DNA of 64,000 bases from positions 1 through 64,000 of IMG/VR virus record IMGVR_UViG_3300045391_002681, one strand, 5' to 3'. The DNA is from a virus. Below the pieces are notes generated by a model. It was not told the origin of the DNA. It searched no databases and was given only the letters and a program-made list of their open reading frames with translations. Below, in pieces: positions 6,888 to 26,674 of the stretch. Position 1 is the stretch's first letter. Each line of letters opens with the position of its first letter. The translations under genes were made by a program, and so were the position numbers.

Positions 6888-7196
6888 TCAACTCTGAACG
6901 GCCGCTTTGATCGCGTGGATGAACACGCCCGCCTCGTTGTAGAGCGCGACCAGGGCGTTCACGAACGTGGCGATCGCCGCCATCAGCAGATGCATGGGCG
7001 CCGACAGCGTCGGGATCACGCTGTTGACGAACACCTCTGAGGCATTCAGCACGGCCGTGAGCTTGTCCGGTCCCGACAGGGCCTTGTTCTCCACCGCGAC
7101 GACGGTCGAGGAGATGAACGACAGGATCGCGGGAACGTCCTTGTCGGCTTCCGCGAGGACGGCGCTGATGGTCGCGACAGCGGTGGCGATGTTCAT
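6888..7196 (-). CDS. Hydrophobic protein, possible holin
   Basis: End of lysis cassette, amphipathic helices. Confidence 0.45.
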   Translation of the reverse strand: MNIATAVATISAVLAEADKDVPAILSFISSTVVAVENKALSGPDKLTAVLNASEVFVNSVIPTLSAPMHLLMAAIATFVNALVALYNEAGVFIHAIKAAVQS

Positions 7197-19337: not shown

Positions 19338-19808
19338 CTACTTCCCGGTCACGACGATGGTGTTTGAGTGGCCCGGCTGGCGCGACATGAGCTTGGCAGC
19401 CTCGCTGGTGAACTCGTCCTCGGCCTCTCCGACACTCTTTGCTGAGGTGGCAAAGATCATCGTCAGGTACGTGTCCGCGTGGGCGAAGAAAGCCTGCTTT
19501 CGGTGCGCGCTGGCCGGCAGGACGGCATAGCCAGTCAGTCGCTCGGCGCTGTCTCCGCGAGACACGGTGCAGTCGCCCGATACGATCAGGACCGTGGCCA
19601 CTTCGACGAGCGCGCCCGTGATGGCGACGCCAGCAGGGATCATGATCGTGCGGGCGTAGAGGCCGGCGTGCAGGACGTGTTGGGTGGCGATCTCGGCCTG
19701 GGGCAGTTGGGCCGCGCGTATCTCCGCTTCACTGATTGCGGCGATGCCCTCGGGGCTGGAAGCCAAAGCCGAAATCAGCAGGTACGGCGTGAGCATCACG
19801 TCCTGCAT
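19338..19808 (-). CDS. Cupin-fold hypothetical protein
   Basis: HVLHAGLYARTIMIPAG...G motif. Confidence 0.65.
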   Translation of the reverse strand: MQDVMLTPYLLISALASSPEGIAAISEAEIRAAQLPQAEIATQHVLHAGLYARTIMIPAGVAITGALVEVATVLIVSGDCTVSRGDSAERLTGYAVLPASAHRKQAFFAHADTYLTMIFATSAKSVGEAEDEFTSEAAKLMSRQPGHSNTIVVTGK

Positions 19809-20251
19809 GGTGCTCCTTTCGCGAACACGCTGTTGCTGTGGCGGTAGCCGAGACGGGGCAGGATCCGCTCAAGGGCGCTGCCGGCCGGGGCCGTGATCAG
19901 CAGGCCGGTCCCATGCAGAGCGGCTAGGGCTTCGGCCGCGCGGATCAGCGCGCGCCCGGCCCCGGTGCGGCGGCGGTCAGCCCTGACGAACACACTCTCG
20001 ACGACCGAGATCGGGCCGCCGTAGTGCGGAAGACTGGAGCGCAGCACGCTGACGAAGCCGACCAGCCGGCCGTCCTCGCGCGCGGCGATGATGTTGAAAA
20101 GCCCCGCCTGCTCCAGGGCCGCGTACTGCTCCCATTGTGGTTGCGCGGCGGGCAGTTCAGGCGATTTCGCCTCGGCCGCGTATTCGGCGACCAGGGCCGC
20201 GATGTCCGGATCGCCCATGAGGTCGGCGACGGTTGCGACAGCGATGTCCAT
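19796..20251 (-). CDS. GNAT acetyltransferase
   Basis: VFVRADRRRTGAGRALI acetyl-CoA motif A. Confidence 0.88.
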   Translation of the reverse strand: MDIAVATVADLMGDPDIAALVAEYAAEAKSPELPAAQPQWEQYAALEQAGLFNIIAAREDGRLVGFVSVLRSSLPHYGGPISVVESVFVRADRRRTGAGRALIRAAEALAALHGTGLLITAPAGSALERILPRLGYRHSNSVFAKGAPCRT

Positions 20252-20289
20252 GCCGCAGCCTCCGCGTTCGGAAAATGTTGAAATGCGAA

Positions 20290-20309
20290 GGGCGGCCCGA
20301 AGACCGCCC
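20290..20309 (-). terminator. Intrinsic terminator closing the RAMP/array operon
   Basis: GGGCGGTC-TTCG-GGCCGCCC-TTCGCATTT. Confidence 0.85.
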
Positions 20310-20312
20310 CCT

Positions 20313-20454
20313 TAGACCAGCGCTGGCCAGCCCCGCCACGAGCCGCCCAACCACGCCTTGCCTGCCGAGCCGCGCCCAGCCAAGCCCTGCAATGCCTCGC
20401 CTGCCTTGACTAGCCCAGCGGTGCCAAGCCTAGCCTCGCGTTGCGGTGCCTGCC
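20313..20454 (-). ncRNA. Putative guide-RNA array: three units of GGCA-(GGY NN)n, n = 9, 7, 10
   Basis: Strict 5-nt periodicity; third base is a pyrimidine in 26/26 pentamers and 17/26 triplets are exact GGY; non-coding, between a stop codon and a terminator. Confidence 0.8.
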
Positions 20455-20464
20455 CTACCCCGAT

Positions 20465-20947
20465 TTAGCCCTTAAGGATGGGCCGAGTTTCGTCGATGGC
20501 CGAGAATATCCGAGCCAACTCCGACAACTCCGCATGGCGGGCTCGCCACGCCTCCAACTCGGTGAAAGCCCGGCGCAGAACCTGCTTGCGCAGTTCCTCG
20601 CTGGACATCGCCGTCGCCGTGGAAACGTAGCCGCGCGCGGTGTCGGTTTCCACGTTCACGAATGCCCTGACCGTCTTCTGCTCCACGTTGGATCGGGAGA
20701 TATCGACGGTCAGGGACCGCACAAGGTCTCTGGCCTGATCACAGCGGAAGGCCTCTGCCGCCGCGTGATCGTCCCATTCGAAGTGGTTGTGCAGGACCGA
20801 GTCCTCGGCCCGGGCCGCGTCAACGATCTGCTGCGGCTCCAGCGGGTCGTTGCGGCCCTTCTGGAGATTGGCGATGGCTTCGCCCGCCTTCTGCGCGTCG
20901 ATGCCGATGCGGGAGCCTTGGCGCCAGCCGTAGATGACCCTAGCCAT
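20465..20947 (-). CDS. Conserved phage protein, partner of the RAMP-like gene
   Basis: LHNHFEWDDHAAAEAFRCDQAR motif; 8-nt overlap with the upstream gene. Confidence 0.75.
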   Translation of the reverse strand: MARVIYGWRQGSRIGIDAQKAGEAIANLQKGRNDPLEPQQIVDAARAEDSVLHNHFEWDDHAAAEAFRCDQARDLVRSLTVDISRSNVEQKTVRAFVNVETDTARGYVSTATAMSSEELRKQVLRRAFTELEAWRARHAELSELARIFSAIDETRPILKG

Positions 20948-21590
20948 GCAGGGCCTCGATTTCTCCGGCAGCGGCGACGCGGAACCGGCCGAACAGGCCG
21001 TCGCGTTCCGGGCGCCACTCGCCAACACCGACTGCGAAGCCGGCGAGGTTGAACAGGGTGACGACCTGCTCCGCTGAGATGACGGCGGTGTTGATCTGCA
21101 CCTTGACCTTGACGCCCCACGGATCGAACTGGCCGCGGTAGCGCAGGTCCGCCACACCCATGCCGACGCGGGTCACGTCCTCGCGCATGGCCGGCGGTGG
21201 CCCGATGATCTCGGCCATCTCGTCGACGACGTGAAACGCCTGCCGGGCCGCGACCTTGGTCACCGAGCCAGTGGACGTGCAGGCCGTGACGGCGGCCGAC
21301 TTGAAGGCGACGCCGGGGAAACCGAACTTGGCCTTGTCGATGTCATCCGCGGTCGGCCTCTCGGGCTTGGCGGAGAGCCAGTAGAGGCTGCCGACGAAGT
21401 CGTCGAACGGCACCTTGGCCTCGCGGCCCTTGGTCGCCTTCTTCTGTTGCTTATCGGCCATGGCCCGGAGCGCCTTTTCGCTCCAGGCATGGACGATCAG
21501 CGGCGTTGTCCCGATCAGCGGGATTTCCACGGTCTCAAGCGCCAGCGGAGGCAACTCGATCGCCGTGCTTGTTTTCGCTACAGCGGCCAT
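20940..21590 (-). CDS. Stand-alone Cas7/RAMP-like protein
   Basis: LIGTTPLIVH (beta1), FPGVAFKSAA (cf. IPGSSLKG), C-terminal Gly-rich loop GVGEWRPERDGLFGRF. Confidence 0.75.
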   Translation of the reverse strand: MAAVAKTSTAIELPPLALETVEIPLIGTTPLIVHAWSEKALRAMADKQQKKATKGREAKVPFDDFVGSLYWLSAKPERPTADDIDKAKFGFPGVAFKSAAVTACTSTGSVTKVAARQAFHVVDEMAEIIGPPPAMREDVTRVGMGVADLRYRGQFDPWGVKVKVQINTAVISAEQVVTLFNLAGFAVGVGEWRPERDGLFGRFRVAAAGEIEALHG

Positions 21591-21796
21591 CAGGCGCCCT
21601 CGTACATGTAGGAGCCCTCATCTTCGCAGACCGCCTCTTGATCGAAGCTGTCTTCGAAGTCCGGATCACCATCCATGCGGTCTAGCGCGGCGATGAGCCG
21701 CTCGACAGCCGCTTCGATGCGGCGCCGCAGTTGGTCCCGGTCATTGGACGGGATGGTGACGCGCACGCGCGGCGTCTTTAGAATGGCGACAGCCAT
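21590..21796 (-). CDS. Small acidic protein
   Basis: GGAG RBS; TGATG coupling to the RAMP-like gene. Confidence 0.65.
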   Translation of the reverse strand: MAVAILKTPRVRVTIPSNDRDQLRRRIEAAVERLIAALDRMDGDPDFEDSFDQEAVCEDEGSYMYEGA

Positions 21797-21827
21797 GACC
21801 TGATCTCCATAGGATCGGTTGCGGTTA

Positions 21828-21862
21828 GGGCCGGCTCGGTGTTGCAAGCACCTTGTCGGCCC
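21828..21862 (-). ncRNA. Conserved leader hairpin, copy 2
   Basis: GGGCCGACAA-GGTG-CTTGCAA-CACC-GAGCCGGCCC. Confidence 0.55.
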
Positions 21863-21890
21863 GACACGTTTATGATACCACGCTATCACG

Positions 21891-22088
21891 ATGTCAATTG
21901 CTGATAGCAAGAAATCAGGAAGGCCGGCGACCGGCACCGGAACCCCGGTGATGGTTAGGCTGTCCGATGCCCAGCTTGAGGCCCTTGATCGTTTCCGCTC
22001 TAGCGCGCCCGGAATACCTTCCAGGCCCGAGGCGCTTCGGCGATTGATGGACTTGGCATTGCAGGCTCGATCTTCGGACGAGGCCTGA
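21891..22088 (+). CDS. Ribbon-helix-helix regulator (paralogue of 12584-12811)
   Basis: GRPATGTGTPVMVRL...SRPEALRRL. Confidence 0.8.
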   Translation: MSIADSKKSGRPATGTGTPVMVRLSDAQLEALDRFRSSAPGIPSRPEALRRLMDLALQARSSDEA

Positions 22089-22183
22089 CCGAAAGGTCGA
22101 AACGGAGCGGGCGATGCACGGTAGGGCTCGGCTGAGCCCGGTTGAAGACGATGGGCCTACTCAAGGGCTAACGGCGACCTTAG

Positions 22184-22723
22184 TTACTTGGCAGCCTTCG
22201 GCGGTTGGCTAGCGGCCCATGCCTCCAGTTGAGCTATTTCATCAGCCGTAATGGCCCCGGTGAGAAGACACTTATCACCCATTGTCGTGGTGACGCGAAG
22301 CGGCACGCGTCCCTGCGCCTTGATGGCAGACAATGTCTCGTCGGGAACTACGAACTGCGCGAGCGCATCGTTGTGACAGCCGGCCGCCCCATAGCAATAG
22401 GGGTCTGCCAAACGCTCCCCGGTTTTGGTCAACGCGAGACCGCCCAACAAATCAACGGCTGTGATCTCTCCCGGCGAGCGCAGGCCATCGGCCTCGATGC
22501 TCATGCCCACGGACAGTTTTCCGCTTGCGCGCGGGATCAGGCCATAAACTGCGTAGCTGGCGCCATCTCCGCAGTAGCTCTGTCCATTTTGCGACCTCAG
22601 TGGGCCCCGAAACTCGGCCTGGACGTAGGCCTTATACGGATCGTCCGTAATATTCATCTGTGCCGACGCCAGGCATGGCGATGCCCAGACCGCCGCGCTC
22701 AAACCAACCCACACCAGCCGCAT
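22184..22723 (-). CDS. Secreted hypothetical moron protein
   Basis: Signal peptide, paired cysteines, atypical codon use. Confidence 0.6.
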   Translation of the reverse strand: MRLVWVGLSAAVWASPCLASAQMNITDDPYKAYVQAEFRGPLRSQNGQSYCGDGASYAVYGLIPRASGKLSVGMSIEADGLRSPGEITAVDLLGGLALTKTGERLADPYCYGAAGCHNDALAQFVVPDETLSAIKAQGRVPLRVTTTMGDKCLLTGAITADEIAQLEAWAASQPPKAAK

Positions 22724-22785
22724 ATTCGCACCCCCTCAAATAGGAGAAGCTTTGCGCTGAACGCGTCTGATGTACAGGCCGCAGG

Positions 22786-23373
22786 TCAGCCCGTTCCCCA
22801 CACTTTTGAGGTGCCCCCAGTCAACTTCGCCACCTGATCGAACATGGCGTCGTCGGCGGACCGGCGGCGCTGGTCGATGTCTGTGAAGAACACGAAGTTG
22901 GGTCGGCGCCGGCTGGTGAACACATTGCCCACCGATAGCTTCAGCGCGCGGGTCTGGCCGTCGGGATTGCGCTGAACGGTGAGGGAGTCTGCCGTGCCAC
23001 TCCCCAGCCAGAAGACGGGGTCGATCAGTTGCCAGTCGGCGTCGAACAGGACCAGGCCGAAGTCGACCGCTACGCCCCGGATGTCCGCCGCGCTGCCCTG
23101 CGCGATGGCTGCGGCCTCGCCGGTGACTGCCACCCCAGAAACGCCGAGATCGAACCGATCCGCCTCGCCGTTCAGGGCGGCCGAGAGCTGCGGATAGTCG
23201 GTCAGCAGGCCCATGGACAGATATTCAGCGCCGTCGGTGTCCTCCGCCCCGCCAGCCGGGATGGCGATGGGTCGCACCTGGCCAGCCCAGATGCGGATGA
23301 CGGTGGGCGTGGCGATGCGGACCAGAGCGCCCACGCGCTTGGCCTTGGCCAGTTGGTCAACGCTGTAGGTCAC
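22786..23373 (-). CDS. Tail tip protein
   Basis: Follows Dit; TDIDQRRRSADD.MFDQV...KVW C-terminus. Confidence 0.7.
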   Translation of the reverse strand: MTYSVDQLAKAKRVGALVRIATPTVIRIWAGQVRPIAIPAGGAEDTDGAEYLSMGLLTDYPQLSAALNGEADRFDLGVSGVAVTGEAAAIAQGSAADIRGVAVDFGLVLFDADWQLIDPVFWLGSGTADSLTVQRNPDGQTRALKLSVGNVFTSRRRPNFVFFTDIDQRRRSADDAMFDQVAKLTGGTSKVWGTG

Positions 23374-24077
23374 GGCGCGCCCGGGTATTCGATGAGGCGG
23401 GCCGCAGCCTTGCCGAAGCGGAACTGCTGCACGGTCTCGGAGATGTCGCCATCGACGCGCGCCACGAAGCGCGGGCTCTCGAAATTGAGAGCCGCGCCGG
23501 ACGCGACCGCCTCACGCAGGGGCGGCCTGAACTGGACCTGGGTCGAGACGGCAGATCCGACCGTCCCGCCGGACACGACCCGGCTGACACGATAGAGCCG
23601 CCAGGACATGGTCGCGTGCAGGATGCTGAACAATTCGCCGCCCATGAGGGCCAATGGCGCAGTCAGGTTGAAGGTGCAGGACGTCGCGCTGAGCGCCATG
23701 TCGGCCGTGGTCGTGGCCGTGACCTCGGTGTTGCTCCAGGCCGTGACGTCGTCGACCCAGGTCGTCGTTCCGAACGTGTCCGCGCCGGTATACTTCGGGT
23801 TCACCGGCTGGTGCAGACGGTCGGCCACCGGGACAATGAGCGATTGAGCCCCGCCGTCTGCCGCCGCGACGAACCGGCGATACAGCAGCCGGGCCTCGCG
23901 GGTCATCAGGGCGATGTCGCCGAAATCCCCGACCCAGCGGCCGCCGCCGCTCGCATCGGCGAACTGCTGCTCGCCAGACAGGGACACGCCGCCAGAAATC
24001 GCCTGGCCGACTAGGCGTAGCTGTAGCGAACCGGCGCCCAGAGCGACGGCTGGATAGACCAGGCTGCCGGTCGTCAC
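23370..24077 (-). CDS. Distal tail protein (Dit-like)
   Basis: Follows the tape measure gene; FRPPLREAV...LNFESP motif. Confidence 0.7.
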   Translation of the reverse strand: MTTGSLVYPAVALGAGSLQLRLVGQAISGGVSLSGEQQFADASGGGRWVGDFGDIALMTREARLLYRRFVAAADGGAQSLIVPVADRLHQPVNPKYTGADTFGTTTWVDDVTAWSNTEVTATTTADMALSATSCTFNLTAPLALMGGELFSILHATMSWRLYRVSRVVSGGTVGSAVSTQVQFRPPLREAVASGAALNFESPRFVARVDGDISETVQQFRFGKAAARLIEYPGAP

Positions 24078-26674
24078 TGGTTGAGGCCCCCGAGGTAGCC
24101 GGCGCGGTGGACGTCCTGCACCGCCAGCGAGCGGCCGACCTGCGCAGCCTGCCGCGCGTGGGCCGCGGAGATGCTGTTCATCTGGTCAAGCAAGTCCTGG
24201 GTCATGACCGGGCTGTTGAGTACGAACGTGGGTCCGGCGATCATGGCTGGCGCTGTCTGCGGCGCCTTCATCGCGTTGATCGCATCCAGGGTCTGGAACG
24301 TCGGCGTCACGCTCGCCCCGCGCGGCAGGTTGACCAGCTCCGGGCCCTTCTCGCCCACCAGGGCCATGCCGCCGGGAGCGAAGTCGGTGCCTGAGGCGAA
24401 CCCCGGGATGAAGTGCAGCAGCGCCGCGAAGCCTTGTGCCATGCCCGGCGCGGCTTCCCTTTCCAGCGTCTGGGTCAGGATTTGCTGGACGAGGTTGAGG
24501 AACGTGTTCTTCAGCACGTCGCCGAGGTTCTTGGCGTGCAGGGCGGCGTCGACCAGGCCCGAGTTGAGCGCTTGGATGGCCTGGACGCCGTCTTCCTGGA
24601 AGGCGGTGTTCAGGTCCTGGATTTTGTTGATGTACTGCTGAAGCGGCCCGGCGTTGGCCTTCTCAAAACTGGCCGTCTGCAGCGGCTGTTCTGCCTTGAC
24701 GAAGTTGACGTTCGTCTGCGCCGCGTCGACCGCATTCTGCGCGTGCTTGATCGCGTCCTTGTCGTCTGGAGAGGTCGCTTTGACCGCCTCCAGATGACTT
24801 TTGGCTTCGGCCAGTTTCGAGGCGGCCAATTCGCTGTCCGCCTTCTGCTGCGCGACCAGCGCGGCGCGCTCCAGGTCTACGCGGTCCTTGGCGACCGTCG
24901 CCAGACTGGCGCGAAGCGTCAGCGTCGCCGCTTCGTTCTGGTATGCCGTAAGGCGCTGCTGGTAGCTGTCCTGCTCAAGCTGGGCGGCCAGGGTCATCTG
25001 TGCCAGCTGATGCTCACGTTCGGCGAGCAGCAGGTCGGTCGATTGGGTTAGACGGACTTCGGTTTCCGTCTGGTTGAGGACGGCGATGGTCTTGTCGTGG
25101 TTGGCCTGGATGTTCTTGGCCTCGGCGTCGGCCGCCGCGGTGTGGAGCTTGGCCAGTTCAGCGAGCTTGGCGTTGTCGCTGGTCTGCAGCTCGGTCTTCT
25201 GCTTCTCGATCTCGGCGATCTGCTTGTCGGCCCCGAGGTCGATCGCCTTCCTCTGGTTCTGGTAGGCCTCGTCCAGCGAGCCGGACAGCTTCTGATAGGC
25301 CTCGGCCAGCTTCTGCTGAGCCCCGATCAGCGTGGCCTGCGCGCCCTCCAGCTTCGCTCCGGAGTCGTCCTTGGGGAGGGCCTTGACCACCTCCGGCGCC
25401 AGGGGGATGCCGCCGCCCGTGCCGTCGCTGGCGGGCTTGCGGTCGGCCGCGATCTTCGCGCCGAGCGCCTTGGTCATGGCGTCGTAGTCGGCCTTGGCGG
25501 TGTTGTAGTCAGCGACCGTGAGGGCCGAGTTCCCGGCGGAGGCGCCGGTTTCATCGAAGTTCGGCGTTTCCTTGGTGGTTTCCGGCGGCGCATAGGCGAT
25601 GTTCCCGCGGGCGTCGAACTTGACGCCCTGGCGGCTCAGCTCGCGCCGGCCCTGGAGCAGTTGCAGGGCCTTGTCGGTCTGATTGGTCCGCAACACGTCT
25701 TCGGTCATCAGATCGTAGTGCGGCTGGCCCGAGAGCTTGCCGCCGTTGATCATGTTCTGCAGCCAGAGGTTGGCGTCCTTCGCCATGCCGGCCATCATGT
25801 CGGCGATGGTCTTCACGACCGGGGCGAGCGTGATGAACGCCTCTTTCAGCTGGACCGAGATGATGTCCTTGGTCGCGGCCAATTCCTTGTTGAGGTCGGC
25901 GGCCTTCTTGATGCTGCCGGCGTCGATCACCGCGCCGCTGGCCTTGGCCTCCTTCATCTTCTCGCCGATCTCGCCGAGCACCGGAACGATGTCCTTGGGG
26001 ATGCCGAGCTTTTCCGCCAGCATGTTCCGCTGGCCGGTGTTCCTTATCTTCTCCAGGCGCTCGCCGATTTCAGACAGCGCACTGACCGGGTCCTTGATGT
26101 CCCGCGCGCTCTCCTTGGTGATGCCTAGCGCGTCGAACACCGGGATCAGGCGCTTGTCGCCGATGTTGGCGGCGTACTTGGCGATGGAGACCTGTAGTTC
26201 CTCGGCCGCCTGCTTGGCGGTGTCGAAGTTCACGCCGGACGCGACGGACGCATAGTTCAGTTCCTGGACCTTGTCCGTGGTCGTGCCCAAGACCTCGGCC
26301 AAATGCTGGACCTGTTCGGCGTATTCCATCGCCTTGTGGGCTTCCTCGAGGGCGATGCCGAAGGCGGCGATTCCGGCCGCGGCGCCGATACCGAGCGGCC
26401 CCAACGGCTCCAGGGCGGACCCGAAGATGCGCAGCCGCGCCGAGCCCTCTTCAAGGACCGCGAGCTTGGAGCTGTCGAAGACCTTGTCGAGCGCCTTGCC
26501 GACGTTGATCGAGCCGAGGCCCTTCTCCAGTCCCTCGGCCGCCTTCTTGCCGCGGCGCTCCAGTTCCGGCCCCGCGTCCGACAGGCGCTTGTTCAGCGCG
26601 TCGATGGCCTTCAGCGCCTTGGAGGTGTCGGCCGAGACCGTAAGGAGAAGTGCCTGGGCGTCTGATGTGGCCAT
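24074..26674 (-). CDS. Tape measure protein
   Basis: Long Ala-rich coiled coil; C-terminal PGFASGT...ALVGEKGPELV motif. Confidence 0.9.
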   Translation of the reverse strand: MATSDAQALLLTVSADTSKALKAIDALNKRLSDAGPELERRGKKAAEGLEKGLGSINVGKALDKVFDSSKLAVLEEGSARLRIFGSALEPLGPLGIGAAAGIAAFGIALEEAHKAMEYAEQVQHLAEVLGTTTDKVQELNYASVASGVNFDTAKQAAEELQVSIAKYAANIGDKRLIPVFDALGITKESARDIKDPVSALSEIGERLEKIRNTGQRNMLAEKLGIPKDIVPVLGEIGEKMKEAKASGAVIDAGSIKKAADLNKELAATKDIISVQLKEAFITLAPVVKTIADMMAGMAKDANLWLQNMINGGKLSGQPHYDLMTEDVLRTNQTDKALQLLQGRRELSRQGVKFDARGNIAYAPPETTKETPNFDETGASAGNSALTVADYNTAKADYDAMTKALGAKIAADRKPASDGTGGGIPLAPEVVKALPKDDSGAKLEGAQATLIGAQQKLAEAYQKLSGSLDEAYQNQRKAIDLGADKQIAEIEKQKTELQTSDNAKLAELAKLHTAAADAEAKNIQANHDKTIAVLNQTETEVRLTQSTDLLLAEREHQLAQMTLAAQLEQDSYQQRLTAYQNEAATLTLRASLATVAKDRVDLERAALVAQQKADSELAASKLAEAKSHLEAVKATSPDDKDAIKHAQNAVDAAQTNVNFVKAEQPLQTASFEKANAGPLQQYINKIQDLNTAFQEDGVQAIQALNSGLVDAALHAKNLGDVLKNTFLNLVQQILTQTLEREAAPGMAQGFAALLHFIPGFASGTDFAPGGMALVGEKGPELVNLPRGASVTPTFQTLDAINAMKAPQTAPAMIAGPTFVLNSPVMTQDLLDQMNSISAAHARQAAQVGRSLAVQDVHRAGYLGGLNQ

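Follow-up and report, generated by a model that had tools for sequence, protein, structure and literature searches.

What does the last guide of a small RNA array in this phage recognize, and why does that guide partly match the end of the tail gene bordering its own cassette? The window analysed here is a stretch of 64,000 nucleotides taken from an IMG/VR virus record of 98,411 nt; the phage has a GC content of 65% and its protein relatives come from alphaproteobacterial genomes. A first-pass annotation made from the letters alone had deduced a guide mechanism for the array, and this mechanism is real, having been published in 2026 as VIPR, a phage system of RNA-guided gene silencing first described in a bioRxiv preprint (10.64898/2026.04.26.720920; further preprints 10.64898/2026.04.26.720927 and 10.64898/2026.10.15.759431).

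In the published systems, Vipr is a minimal RAMP protein, vap is an accessory gene, and the vrRNAs consist of 9-16 GGY/NN pentamers, each held by one Vipr protomer so that GGY is hidden and NN presented. The NN pair with double-stranded DNA and one target base is skipped per unit, usually the codon wobble (10.64898/2026.04.26.720920). Either strand can be targeted, no PAM is involved, and the bound filament blocks transcription, thereby silencing competing phages, satellites and other VIPR systems. The VIPR papers report no self hits at 80% identity or above and describe self-match avoidance, and one of them reports self copies with a poorer match than the copies of rivals (10.64898/2026.10.15.759431). 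Here, we describe the VIPR cassette of the window and its clade, and propose from sequence comparison that its third vrRNA probably silences rival sibling phages.

The VIPR genes

Located on the minus strand at 20940-21590, the vipr gene encodes a minimal Cas7-like RAMP protein of 216 aa. A phmmer search with the single sequence matched one PDB sequence, 36pp ('SUSP1 Vipr protein'), with an E-value of 2.4e-4, and a profile of 31 vipr homologues reached 9.5e-7 against the same entry. The residues by which SUSP1 Vipr contacts GGY (H17, R138, D177, W178 and R179) were used for comparison. The G-loop GVGEWRP of the window aligns with GVGDWRP of SUSP1, which sets E191-W192-R193 against D177-W178-R179 with an Asp to Glu replacement, and the thumb arginine is kept, R152 being aligned with R138. 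R152, W192 and R193 are invariant among the 31 homologues and H34 is nearly so, the latter being lined up with the strand 1 histidine H17 only within the insignificant first stretch of the alignment. An AlphaFold2 (AF2) model of the protein (pLDDT 80.6) retrieved by Foldseek top matches that were all Cas7, Csm3 or Cas7-11, with probabilities of 0.9-1.0, in keeping with a Cas7 fold.

The following gene (20465-20947, minus strand; phrog_15946) encodes a putative vap-like accessory protein of 160 aa with an HFEWDD motif; it belongs, as does the 216-aa ORF, to a PHROG of unknown function. Its product has 188 homologues, 157-173 aa long among those listed, on contigs that also carry vipr homologues, and the gene is always the next one after vipr. 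The 160-aa protein gave no PDB or family match and nothing named, and defence-system models found no match among the cassette proteins. Together with the array described below, the 216-aa and 160-aa genes constitute a VIPR system; the locus adds a member to VIPR and, the mechanism having already been published, represents no new kind.

The operon is headed by an acidic ORF of 68 aa (21590-21796, minus strand), for which no family was found, and a divergent ORF of 65 aa (21891-22088, plus strand) likewise showed no significant family. Between the VIPR cassette and the tail gene stands a 179-aa ORF (22184-22723, minus strand) of no known family, with a hydrophobic, signal-peptide-like N-terminus, several cysteines and no match in Pfam, PHROGs or NCBIfam; it looks like a separate moron. 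Downstream of the cassette lie a GNAT acetyltransferase gene (19796-20251) and a short-tail-fibre-like gene (19338-19808), the latter with 69% DNA identity to bbp22/23 of Bordetella phage BPP-1; this order differs from that found behind the tail gene in locus L003, one of the relatives compared below.

The tail gene and the insertion behind it

The tail gene (22786-23373, minus strand) encodes 195 aa ending in ...TSKVWGTG before a TGA stop. Its product matches the tail protein profile phrog_2048 (E-value 9.8e-24, positions 192-359 of 390) and has 37 homologues, with a nearly invariant tryptophan at its position 192. The gene upstream (23370-24077, minus strand) encodes a distal-tail-protein-like product of 235 aa that matches phrog_12948 (E-value 4.8e-28), phrog_1302 and positions 18-155 of phrog_2048, the 235-aa and 195-aa genes (22786-24077) corresponding to the first and second halves, respectively, of one profile of 390 positions. 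In L003, a 344-aa ORF (L003:5545-6579, stop to stop) has a C-terminal half homologous to the 195-aa protein, and the tail gene hence occurs both split and fused. The 866-aa ORF ahead of the 235-aa gene (24074-26674) may be the tape-measure gene.

Scans of IMG/VR, metagenomes and GTDB with the tail-protein alignment yielded 141 loci, of which two exceed 45% identity, namely L002 (83%, ending before the C-terminus) and L003 (68%, ending KVWGYV); the one sequencing run found, a soil DNA metagenome, had an 18% word share, contigs of 150-260 nt, low depth and no contig joining the two sides of the cassette. We compared 102 distinct homologous junctions, drawn from IMG/VR, metagenomes and genomes; in nearly all of them, the following tail gene begins directly at the stop codon or overlaps it. 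The window has instead a 62-nt spacer followed by about 2.5 kb of other genes, which must therefore be an insertion, and the moron insertion that the first-pass annotation had placed at the border of the tail gene is real. It comprises the array, the genes for the 216-aa and 160-aa proteins, and the 179-aa, 68-aa and small divergent ORFs. We also considered whether the 195-aa tail gene marks a fixed hot spot of insertion and found no support, since the VIPR loci of L169 and of L072/L128, likewise close to tail genes, differ in position and orientation.

The vrRNA array

The array covers 142 nt (20313-20454, minus strand) and begins eleven bases past the stop of the 160-aa gene (20465). It parses as GGCA + (NGY NN)n, with G-G-Y in places 1-3 of the pentamer and the last two letters free, in three staggered units that each start with GGCA and have 9, 7 and 10 pentamers. 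A VIPR array is characterised by at least four tandem GGY/NN pentamers that adjoin vipr on the same strand, and the window array has 26 in its three units on the vipr strand. Its lag-5 identity is 0.55, against about 0.25 at other lags, and no second array of this kind occurs in the 98,411-nt record. The GGCA step shifts the register by one base at the unit boundaries, which fits the published staggered arrays, for which the VIPR preprints mention a 1-nt overlap. No classical direct-repeat array was found, so the locus does not classify as CRISPR-Cas, and an Rfam search of 19800-23000 returned no family. The frame of the 160-aa gene stays open across the array to a TAA at 20313, but an extension of its protein by read-through or at the C-terminus was dismissed because all listed homologues have 157-173 aa. 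The 5-nt periodicity was also considered as the mark of a TRAP-like or sponge RNA, until the Vipr homology and the clade targets had emerged.

All three units lie on the minus strand, unit 1 at 20406-20454 with AT-rich NN, unit 2 at 20367-20405 and unit 3, or vrRNA 3, at 20313-20366 with the NN series AA GT TG GG GT GG TG AG TG TA. A GC-rich hairpin with a 10-bp stem and a UUCG loop (20288-20311, minus strand) closes the operon; an identical hairpin also follows the arrays of L164, L166 and L178. A simple terminator scan did not call it, its T run being short. The first two units gave no credible target in the record, the loci or IMG/VR. Unit 1 has six exact matches in IMG/VR, which reduce to two distinct sequences on contigs of 35-42% GC, off the wobble register, and were attributed to chance; unit 2 reached at best 12/14, a chance level. 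Against the tail, vipr and vap protein sets, neither unit produced anything near the match of vrRNA 3.

Within vrRNA 3, we distinguish a guide part (20328-20366, minus strand; GGCA + GGCAA GGCGT GGTTG GGCGG CTCGT GGCGG GGCTG) from a putative conserved 3' handle (20313-20327, minus strand; GCCAG CGCTG GTCTA, with NN AG TG TA). A 3' end motif of the GCT[GA]G[TG]C type stands just ahead of the hairpin in 10 of the 17 distinct arrays of other phages. In the last unit of L166, the first twelve NN match a target in L164 at 22/24, and the equivalent three pentamers (GGCAG CGCTA GGCTG) pair at 0/6. Judging by this one analogous case and by conservation, on which the boundary was drawn, the last three pentamers of vrRNA 3 are probably a handle that does not pair with the target, and its guide most likely ends after seven NN.

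Targeting across the clade

The same arrangement recurs in the clade: of 18 distinct IMG/VR loci encoding a homologue of the 160-aa protein, 17 have an array of this kind behind the gene. These arrays extend from 60 to more than 250 nt, are punctuated by GGCAGGC and usually end in a hairpin, with a lag-5 identity of 0.4-0.59 against about 0.25 elsewhere; a distant AT-rich relative has a (GTTNN)n array. Units were recognised in 97 of 100 loci and numbered 478 when each was counted once, 458 of them being on the vipr strand; 394 guides with 8 or more NN were then compared with 1.73 Mb of locus sequence. At a 1-nt skip, twelve guides reached at least 90%, compared with 2 at a 0-skip and 0 at a 2-skip. 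The 1-nt skip rule thus holds in the clade, and the way in which the first-pass annotation had read the guide, by dinucleotides with the wobble base left out, agrees with the VIPR rule as published (10.64898/2026.04.26.720920). About 40% of the guides attain 80% identity at every spacing, which makes this value the background for such short guides; an 80% identity criterion is accordingly not discriminating for guides of 7-10 units.

Outside vipr and vap, 5 of the 7 strong matches lie in an ORF in wobble register. Unit 1 of L174 matches the first ten tape-measure codons of L057 at 20/20, and the L166 unit mentioned above (L166:4070-4144) finds its target in tape-measure codons 3-14 of L164 (L164:4152-4186), in a gene located directly behind the L164 VIPR cassette. 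A guide of L263 matches at 15/16 a 670-aa ORF of L003 without a PHROG match, which we read as a tail fibre by position. Other guides match VIPR genes: unit 1 of L179 (vrRNA 1) pairs at 18/18, antisense, with the vipr motif AQVVNLFQT of four loci, unit 1 of L176 matches the vipr of L128 at 17/18, and guides of L255 and L258 have strong matches to vap genes. The clade evidence hence points to sibling tail-operon genes (tape measure, tail protein and fibre) and to rival vipr and vap.

The sites of L179 vrRNA 1 (L169:3376-3401, and also L189, L192 and L193) amount to anti-VIPR targeting in the clade. Separately, the 14,492-nt IMG/VR locus L057 is matched by guides of three loci (L174 at 20/20, 2910-2938; L255 at 17/18, 7057-7082; L175 at 18/20, 996-1024), a convergent targeting of one rival.

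In three cases, the homologous site of the carrier itself could be compared with the target: the self sites score 13/18 (the vipr of L179), 14/18 and 17/24 (the L166 site), and the targets 18/18, 17/18 and 22/24, respectively. With clade guides scoring in this way at their own homologous sites, a partial self-match is normal for a guide directed at the homologue of a relative. These parallels support the proposal of the first-pass annotation that the carrier escapes through mismatches.

The partial self-match of vrRNA 3

The self site of vrRNA 3 (22787-22806, minus strand) reads AAa GTg TGg GGa ACg GGc TG and covers the six C-terminal codons of this gene and the first two letters of its stop, the tail gene of 22786-23373; from 22806, the minus strand runs AAA GTG TGG GGA ACG GGC TGA CCT GCG GC (K V W G T G stop, then on). 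With one base skipped per dinucleotide, the match is 12/14 over the first seven NN, 0/6 over the last three and 12/20 in total, i.e. an identity of 86% over seven NN and 60% over ten. As the first-pass annotation had it, six of the first seven dinucleotides match, and the mismatch is the entire fifth one, ACg (Thr) instead of GTn (Val).

The same annotation had cautioned that twelve matched bases are merely suggestive, and rightly so, since shuffled guides do as well in the window. Counted at 1-nt spacing, 60 sites there score at least 12/20, 14 of them above 12/20, and shuffled guides average 70 such sites. For the first seven NN, the 98,411-nt record holds three 12/14 sites, two of them in unremarkable places, and 134 of 300 shuffled guides (45%) attain that score. 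The self-match by itself is at chance level. Of the two comparisons that the first-pass annotation had named as decisive, that with shuffled guides hence went against the self-match, and that with relatives came out in favour of a better site elsewhere, at the protein level.

The predicted target in sibling phages

KVWGVG is the C-terminus of 10 of 36 tail-protein homologues, the closest included (up to 89% identical; P0002, P0003, P0004, P0006, P0007, P0008, P0010, P0011, P0017 and P0022), and five further cluster members (P0279-P0283) end in the same way. This peptide fixes the first two codon letters AA GT TG GG GT GG, to which a TGA stop would add TG, and the guide NN of vrRNA 3 (AA GT TG GG GT GG TG) read K V W G V G TG(A). 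The predicted match is therefore perfect and in frame, at 7/7 NN, if the stop is TGA, with both site and stop deduced from the protein. It is by far the best match of any window guide to the tail, vipr and vap protein sets. In-frame runs did not exceed 5 for 400 letter-shuffled guides and 6 for 24 real guides of other phages, and a perfect in-frame 7-NN match to the tail family was obtained by 33 of 200,000 shuffles and by 0 of 1,710 decoy windows from real guides.

In DNA, the closest relative with a readable gene end is L003, which scores 14/20, or 11/14 over the seven guide NN, and whose 33-kb record has no vipr. A scan of IMG/VR DNA for KVWGVG-stop gave 16 matches, none of them a tail gene. 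L145, an AT-rich contig of 211 kb with a score of 18/20, was discarded as target evidence because it had been picked by the KVWGVG-stop pattern itself. The tail protein P0280, which ends in KVWGVG, and the Vap homologue P0248 (65% identical) are each listed with a 60,232-nt JGI contig; at least one presumed target phage may carry a VIPR of its own, and the first-pass proposal that the targeted phages lack the cassette is doubtful.

Given the shuffle tests, the in-frame position, the occurrence in close relatives, the recurrence of tail operons among the clade's targets and the scores of self and rival sites, we judge it fairly probable that the natural target of vrRNA 3 is the KVWGVG-stop gene end in siblings. 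The explanation that we favour, and hold as a whole with moderate confidence, runs as follows. The pairing part of vrRNA 3 would be its first seven NN, the last three pentamers being the handle before the hairpin. Read as codons, these seven NN would give K-V-W-G-V-G-TG(A), the way in which the 195-aa tail gene ends in the closest siblings, and this gene end would be the target. A Vipr-vrRNA 3 filament bound there would hold up late transcription and deprive the rival of its downstream tail genes. The carrier copy, K-V-W-G-T-G, would presumably be spared by its unpaired dinucleotide (ACg for GTn), and the partial self-match would be the homology shadow of a relative-directed guide. As caveats, the fifth pentamer, CTCGT, lacks the GG, and seven pairing units are fewer than the 9-16 repeats of characterised vrRNAs. 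The self-identity of 86% over seven NN, moreover, exceeds the 80% under which all self hits in the papers fall, so that a single unpaired dinucleotide would have to be enough, or else the guide extends further than we suppose.

The match could also be a coincidence, vrRNA 3 being a genuine guide whose true target lies elsewhere or is unsequenced, and whose G/T-rich sequence simply fits Gly, Val and Trp codons. We regard this as possible, if rather unlikely. It agrees with the chance level of the self-match, with the ease with which about 40% of guides attain 80% identity at any spacing in a small database, with the lack of a credible target for units 1 and 2, and with the family-wise chance of a perfect 7-NN match, which after about 130 genes and 2-8 guide windows is roughly 0.04-0.17 and not negligible. 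The seven guide NN of vrRNA 3 also score 13/14 inside the vrRNA array of another locus (L210:4110-4129, L211:4028-4047), itself G/T-rich, which is probably an effect of that composition; vrRNAs that target vrRNAs are described in the literature. Against coincidence stand the composition-preserving shuffles and the real-guide decoys, the position of the match in frame with the wobble skipped in the closest relatives, its location in a tail operon that other clade guides match, and a self score below the rival score, as in the clear cases.

Where the guide probably ends

A second alternative is that all ten NN pair, reading across the stop into the next gene of cassette-free siblings, and that the insertion destroyed this target in the carrier. 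Such was the proposal of the first-pass annotation, for which 'KVWGVG*' plus the next gene was the target in related phages. Its first half stands, KVWGVG being a real C-terminus of homologues; the next-gene half finds no support, as none of the 102 junctions exceeds 4/6 past the stop, with a distribution that looks like chance, and the full ten-NN pattern has no exact match in IMG/VR. That annotation had also noted that the match stops at the stop codon, where the morons begin. The observation is correct, with 0/6 beyond the stop, and a target extending over the stop would account for a drop exactly where the inserted DNA starts, all the more as the next gene abuts the stop in relatives and as CGC and GTC pentamers serve as guide units elsewhere, e.g. 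in unit 1 of L179. The insertion, however, is not the cause that we retain: in view of the handle motif at the end of 10 of 17 arrays, the match most likely ends at the stop because the guide ends after seven NN. The last two NN (TG, TA) recur at array ends in unrelated phage backgrounds, the handle NN fail to pair in the L166-L164 case, and the TAn codon phase is unlikely in DNA of 65% GC. Pairing across the junction is thus very improbable.

Equally improbable is self-regulation, in which vrRNA 3 would bind weakly to the end of its own tail gene and act as a roadblock between late tail transcription and the downstream moron cassette: the site does lie exactly at the border of the late operon and the inserted genes, with 12/14 (86%) over the seven guide NN, but the papers report self-match avoidance and no self hits at 80% or above, a whole dinucleotide stays unpaired, two equally good sites occur at unremarkable places in the record, and the perfect match is found, at the protein level, in siblings and not in self.

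Implications

With the sibling gene end as the favoured target, the locus provides a natural-target prediction for an uncharacterised VIPR clade with staggered arrays and a working definition of guide versus 3' handle for the last vrRNA of such arrays. Two cases would fit a broader pattern, in which VIPR cassettes of the clade would as a rule encode a guide that targets, in siblings, the late gene flanking the insertion site of the cassette itself: the window guide, whose predicted target is the terminal part of the tail gene immediately upstream of its cassette, and the last guide of L166, matching the L164 version of the tape-measure start just downstream of its cassette. We consider this generalization unlikely. 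If true, such a guide would silence the tail operon of the rival, and recombinants that keep the carrier flank together with the cassette would survive, which would confer a drive-like selfish advantage.

Comparison with known systems

The closest comparison is with type II VIPR, known from Escherichia phage SUSP1 and a Pseudomonas fulva prophage. Shared features are the small single-RRM RAMP with a (D/E)-W-R G-loop, an adjacent gene that is a putative accessory gene in the window, the same-strand arrays of GGY/NN pentamers with a 1-nt skip that leaves out the wobble base, and targets in rival mobile elements, other VIPR systems included, which the self copies match less well. The published spacer-less staggered vrRNAs, known from a legend and compared by description, shift their register by one base per boundary, as does the window array. 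The differences are nonetheless substantial. Identity to SUSP1 Vipr is about 25-30% and restricted to the C-terminal 70 residues, and the vap-like protein of the window has no detectable match to anything named. The window has no long pseudoknot tail after each vrRNA, having instead a 4-nt GGCA step, with a handle and a hairpin on the last unit only; its pentamers are looser (CGC, GTC, GGT) and its guides go down to 7 units. The predicted targets of its clade are late structural genes in the tail operons of siblings, and not the recombinase of a satellite or regulators of lysogeny.

With the Cas7 filaments of Class 1 CRISPR systems (Cascade, Csm/Cmr, Cas7-11 and type VII), the window system has in common the fold, an RNA step of constant length for each protomer, and a thumb by which bases are flipped out where guide and target pair. 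The step differs, however, Vipr covering 5 nt, of which three are hidden and two pair, and Cas7 covering 6 nt, of which five pair. The window system is devoid of cas1/cas2, of a repeat-spacer array and of a recognised nuclease partner and, unlike Class 1 CRISPR, it is borne by a phage and aimed at other phages.
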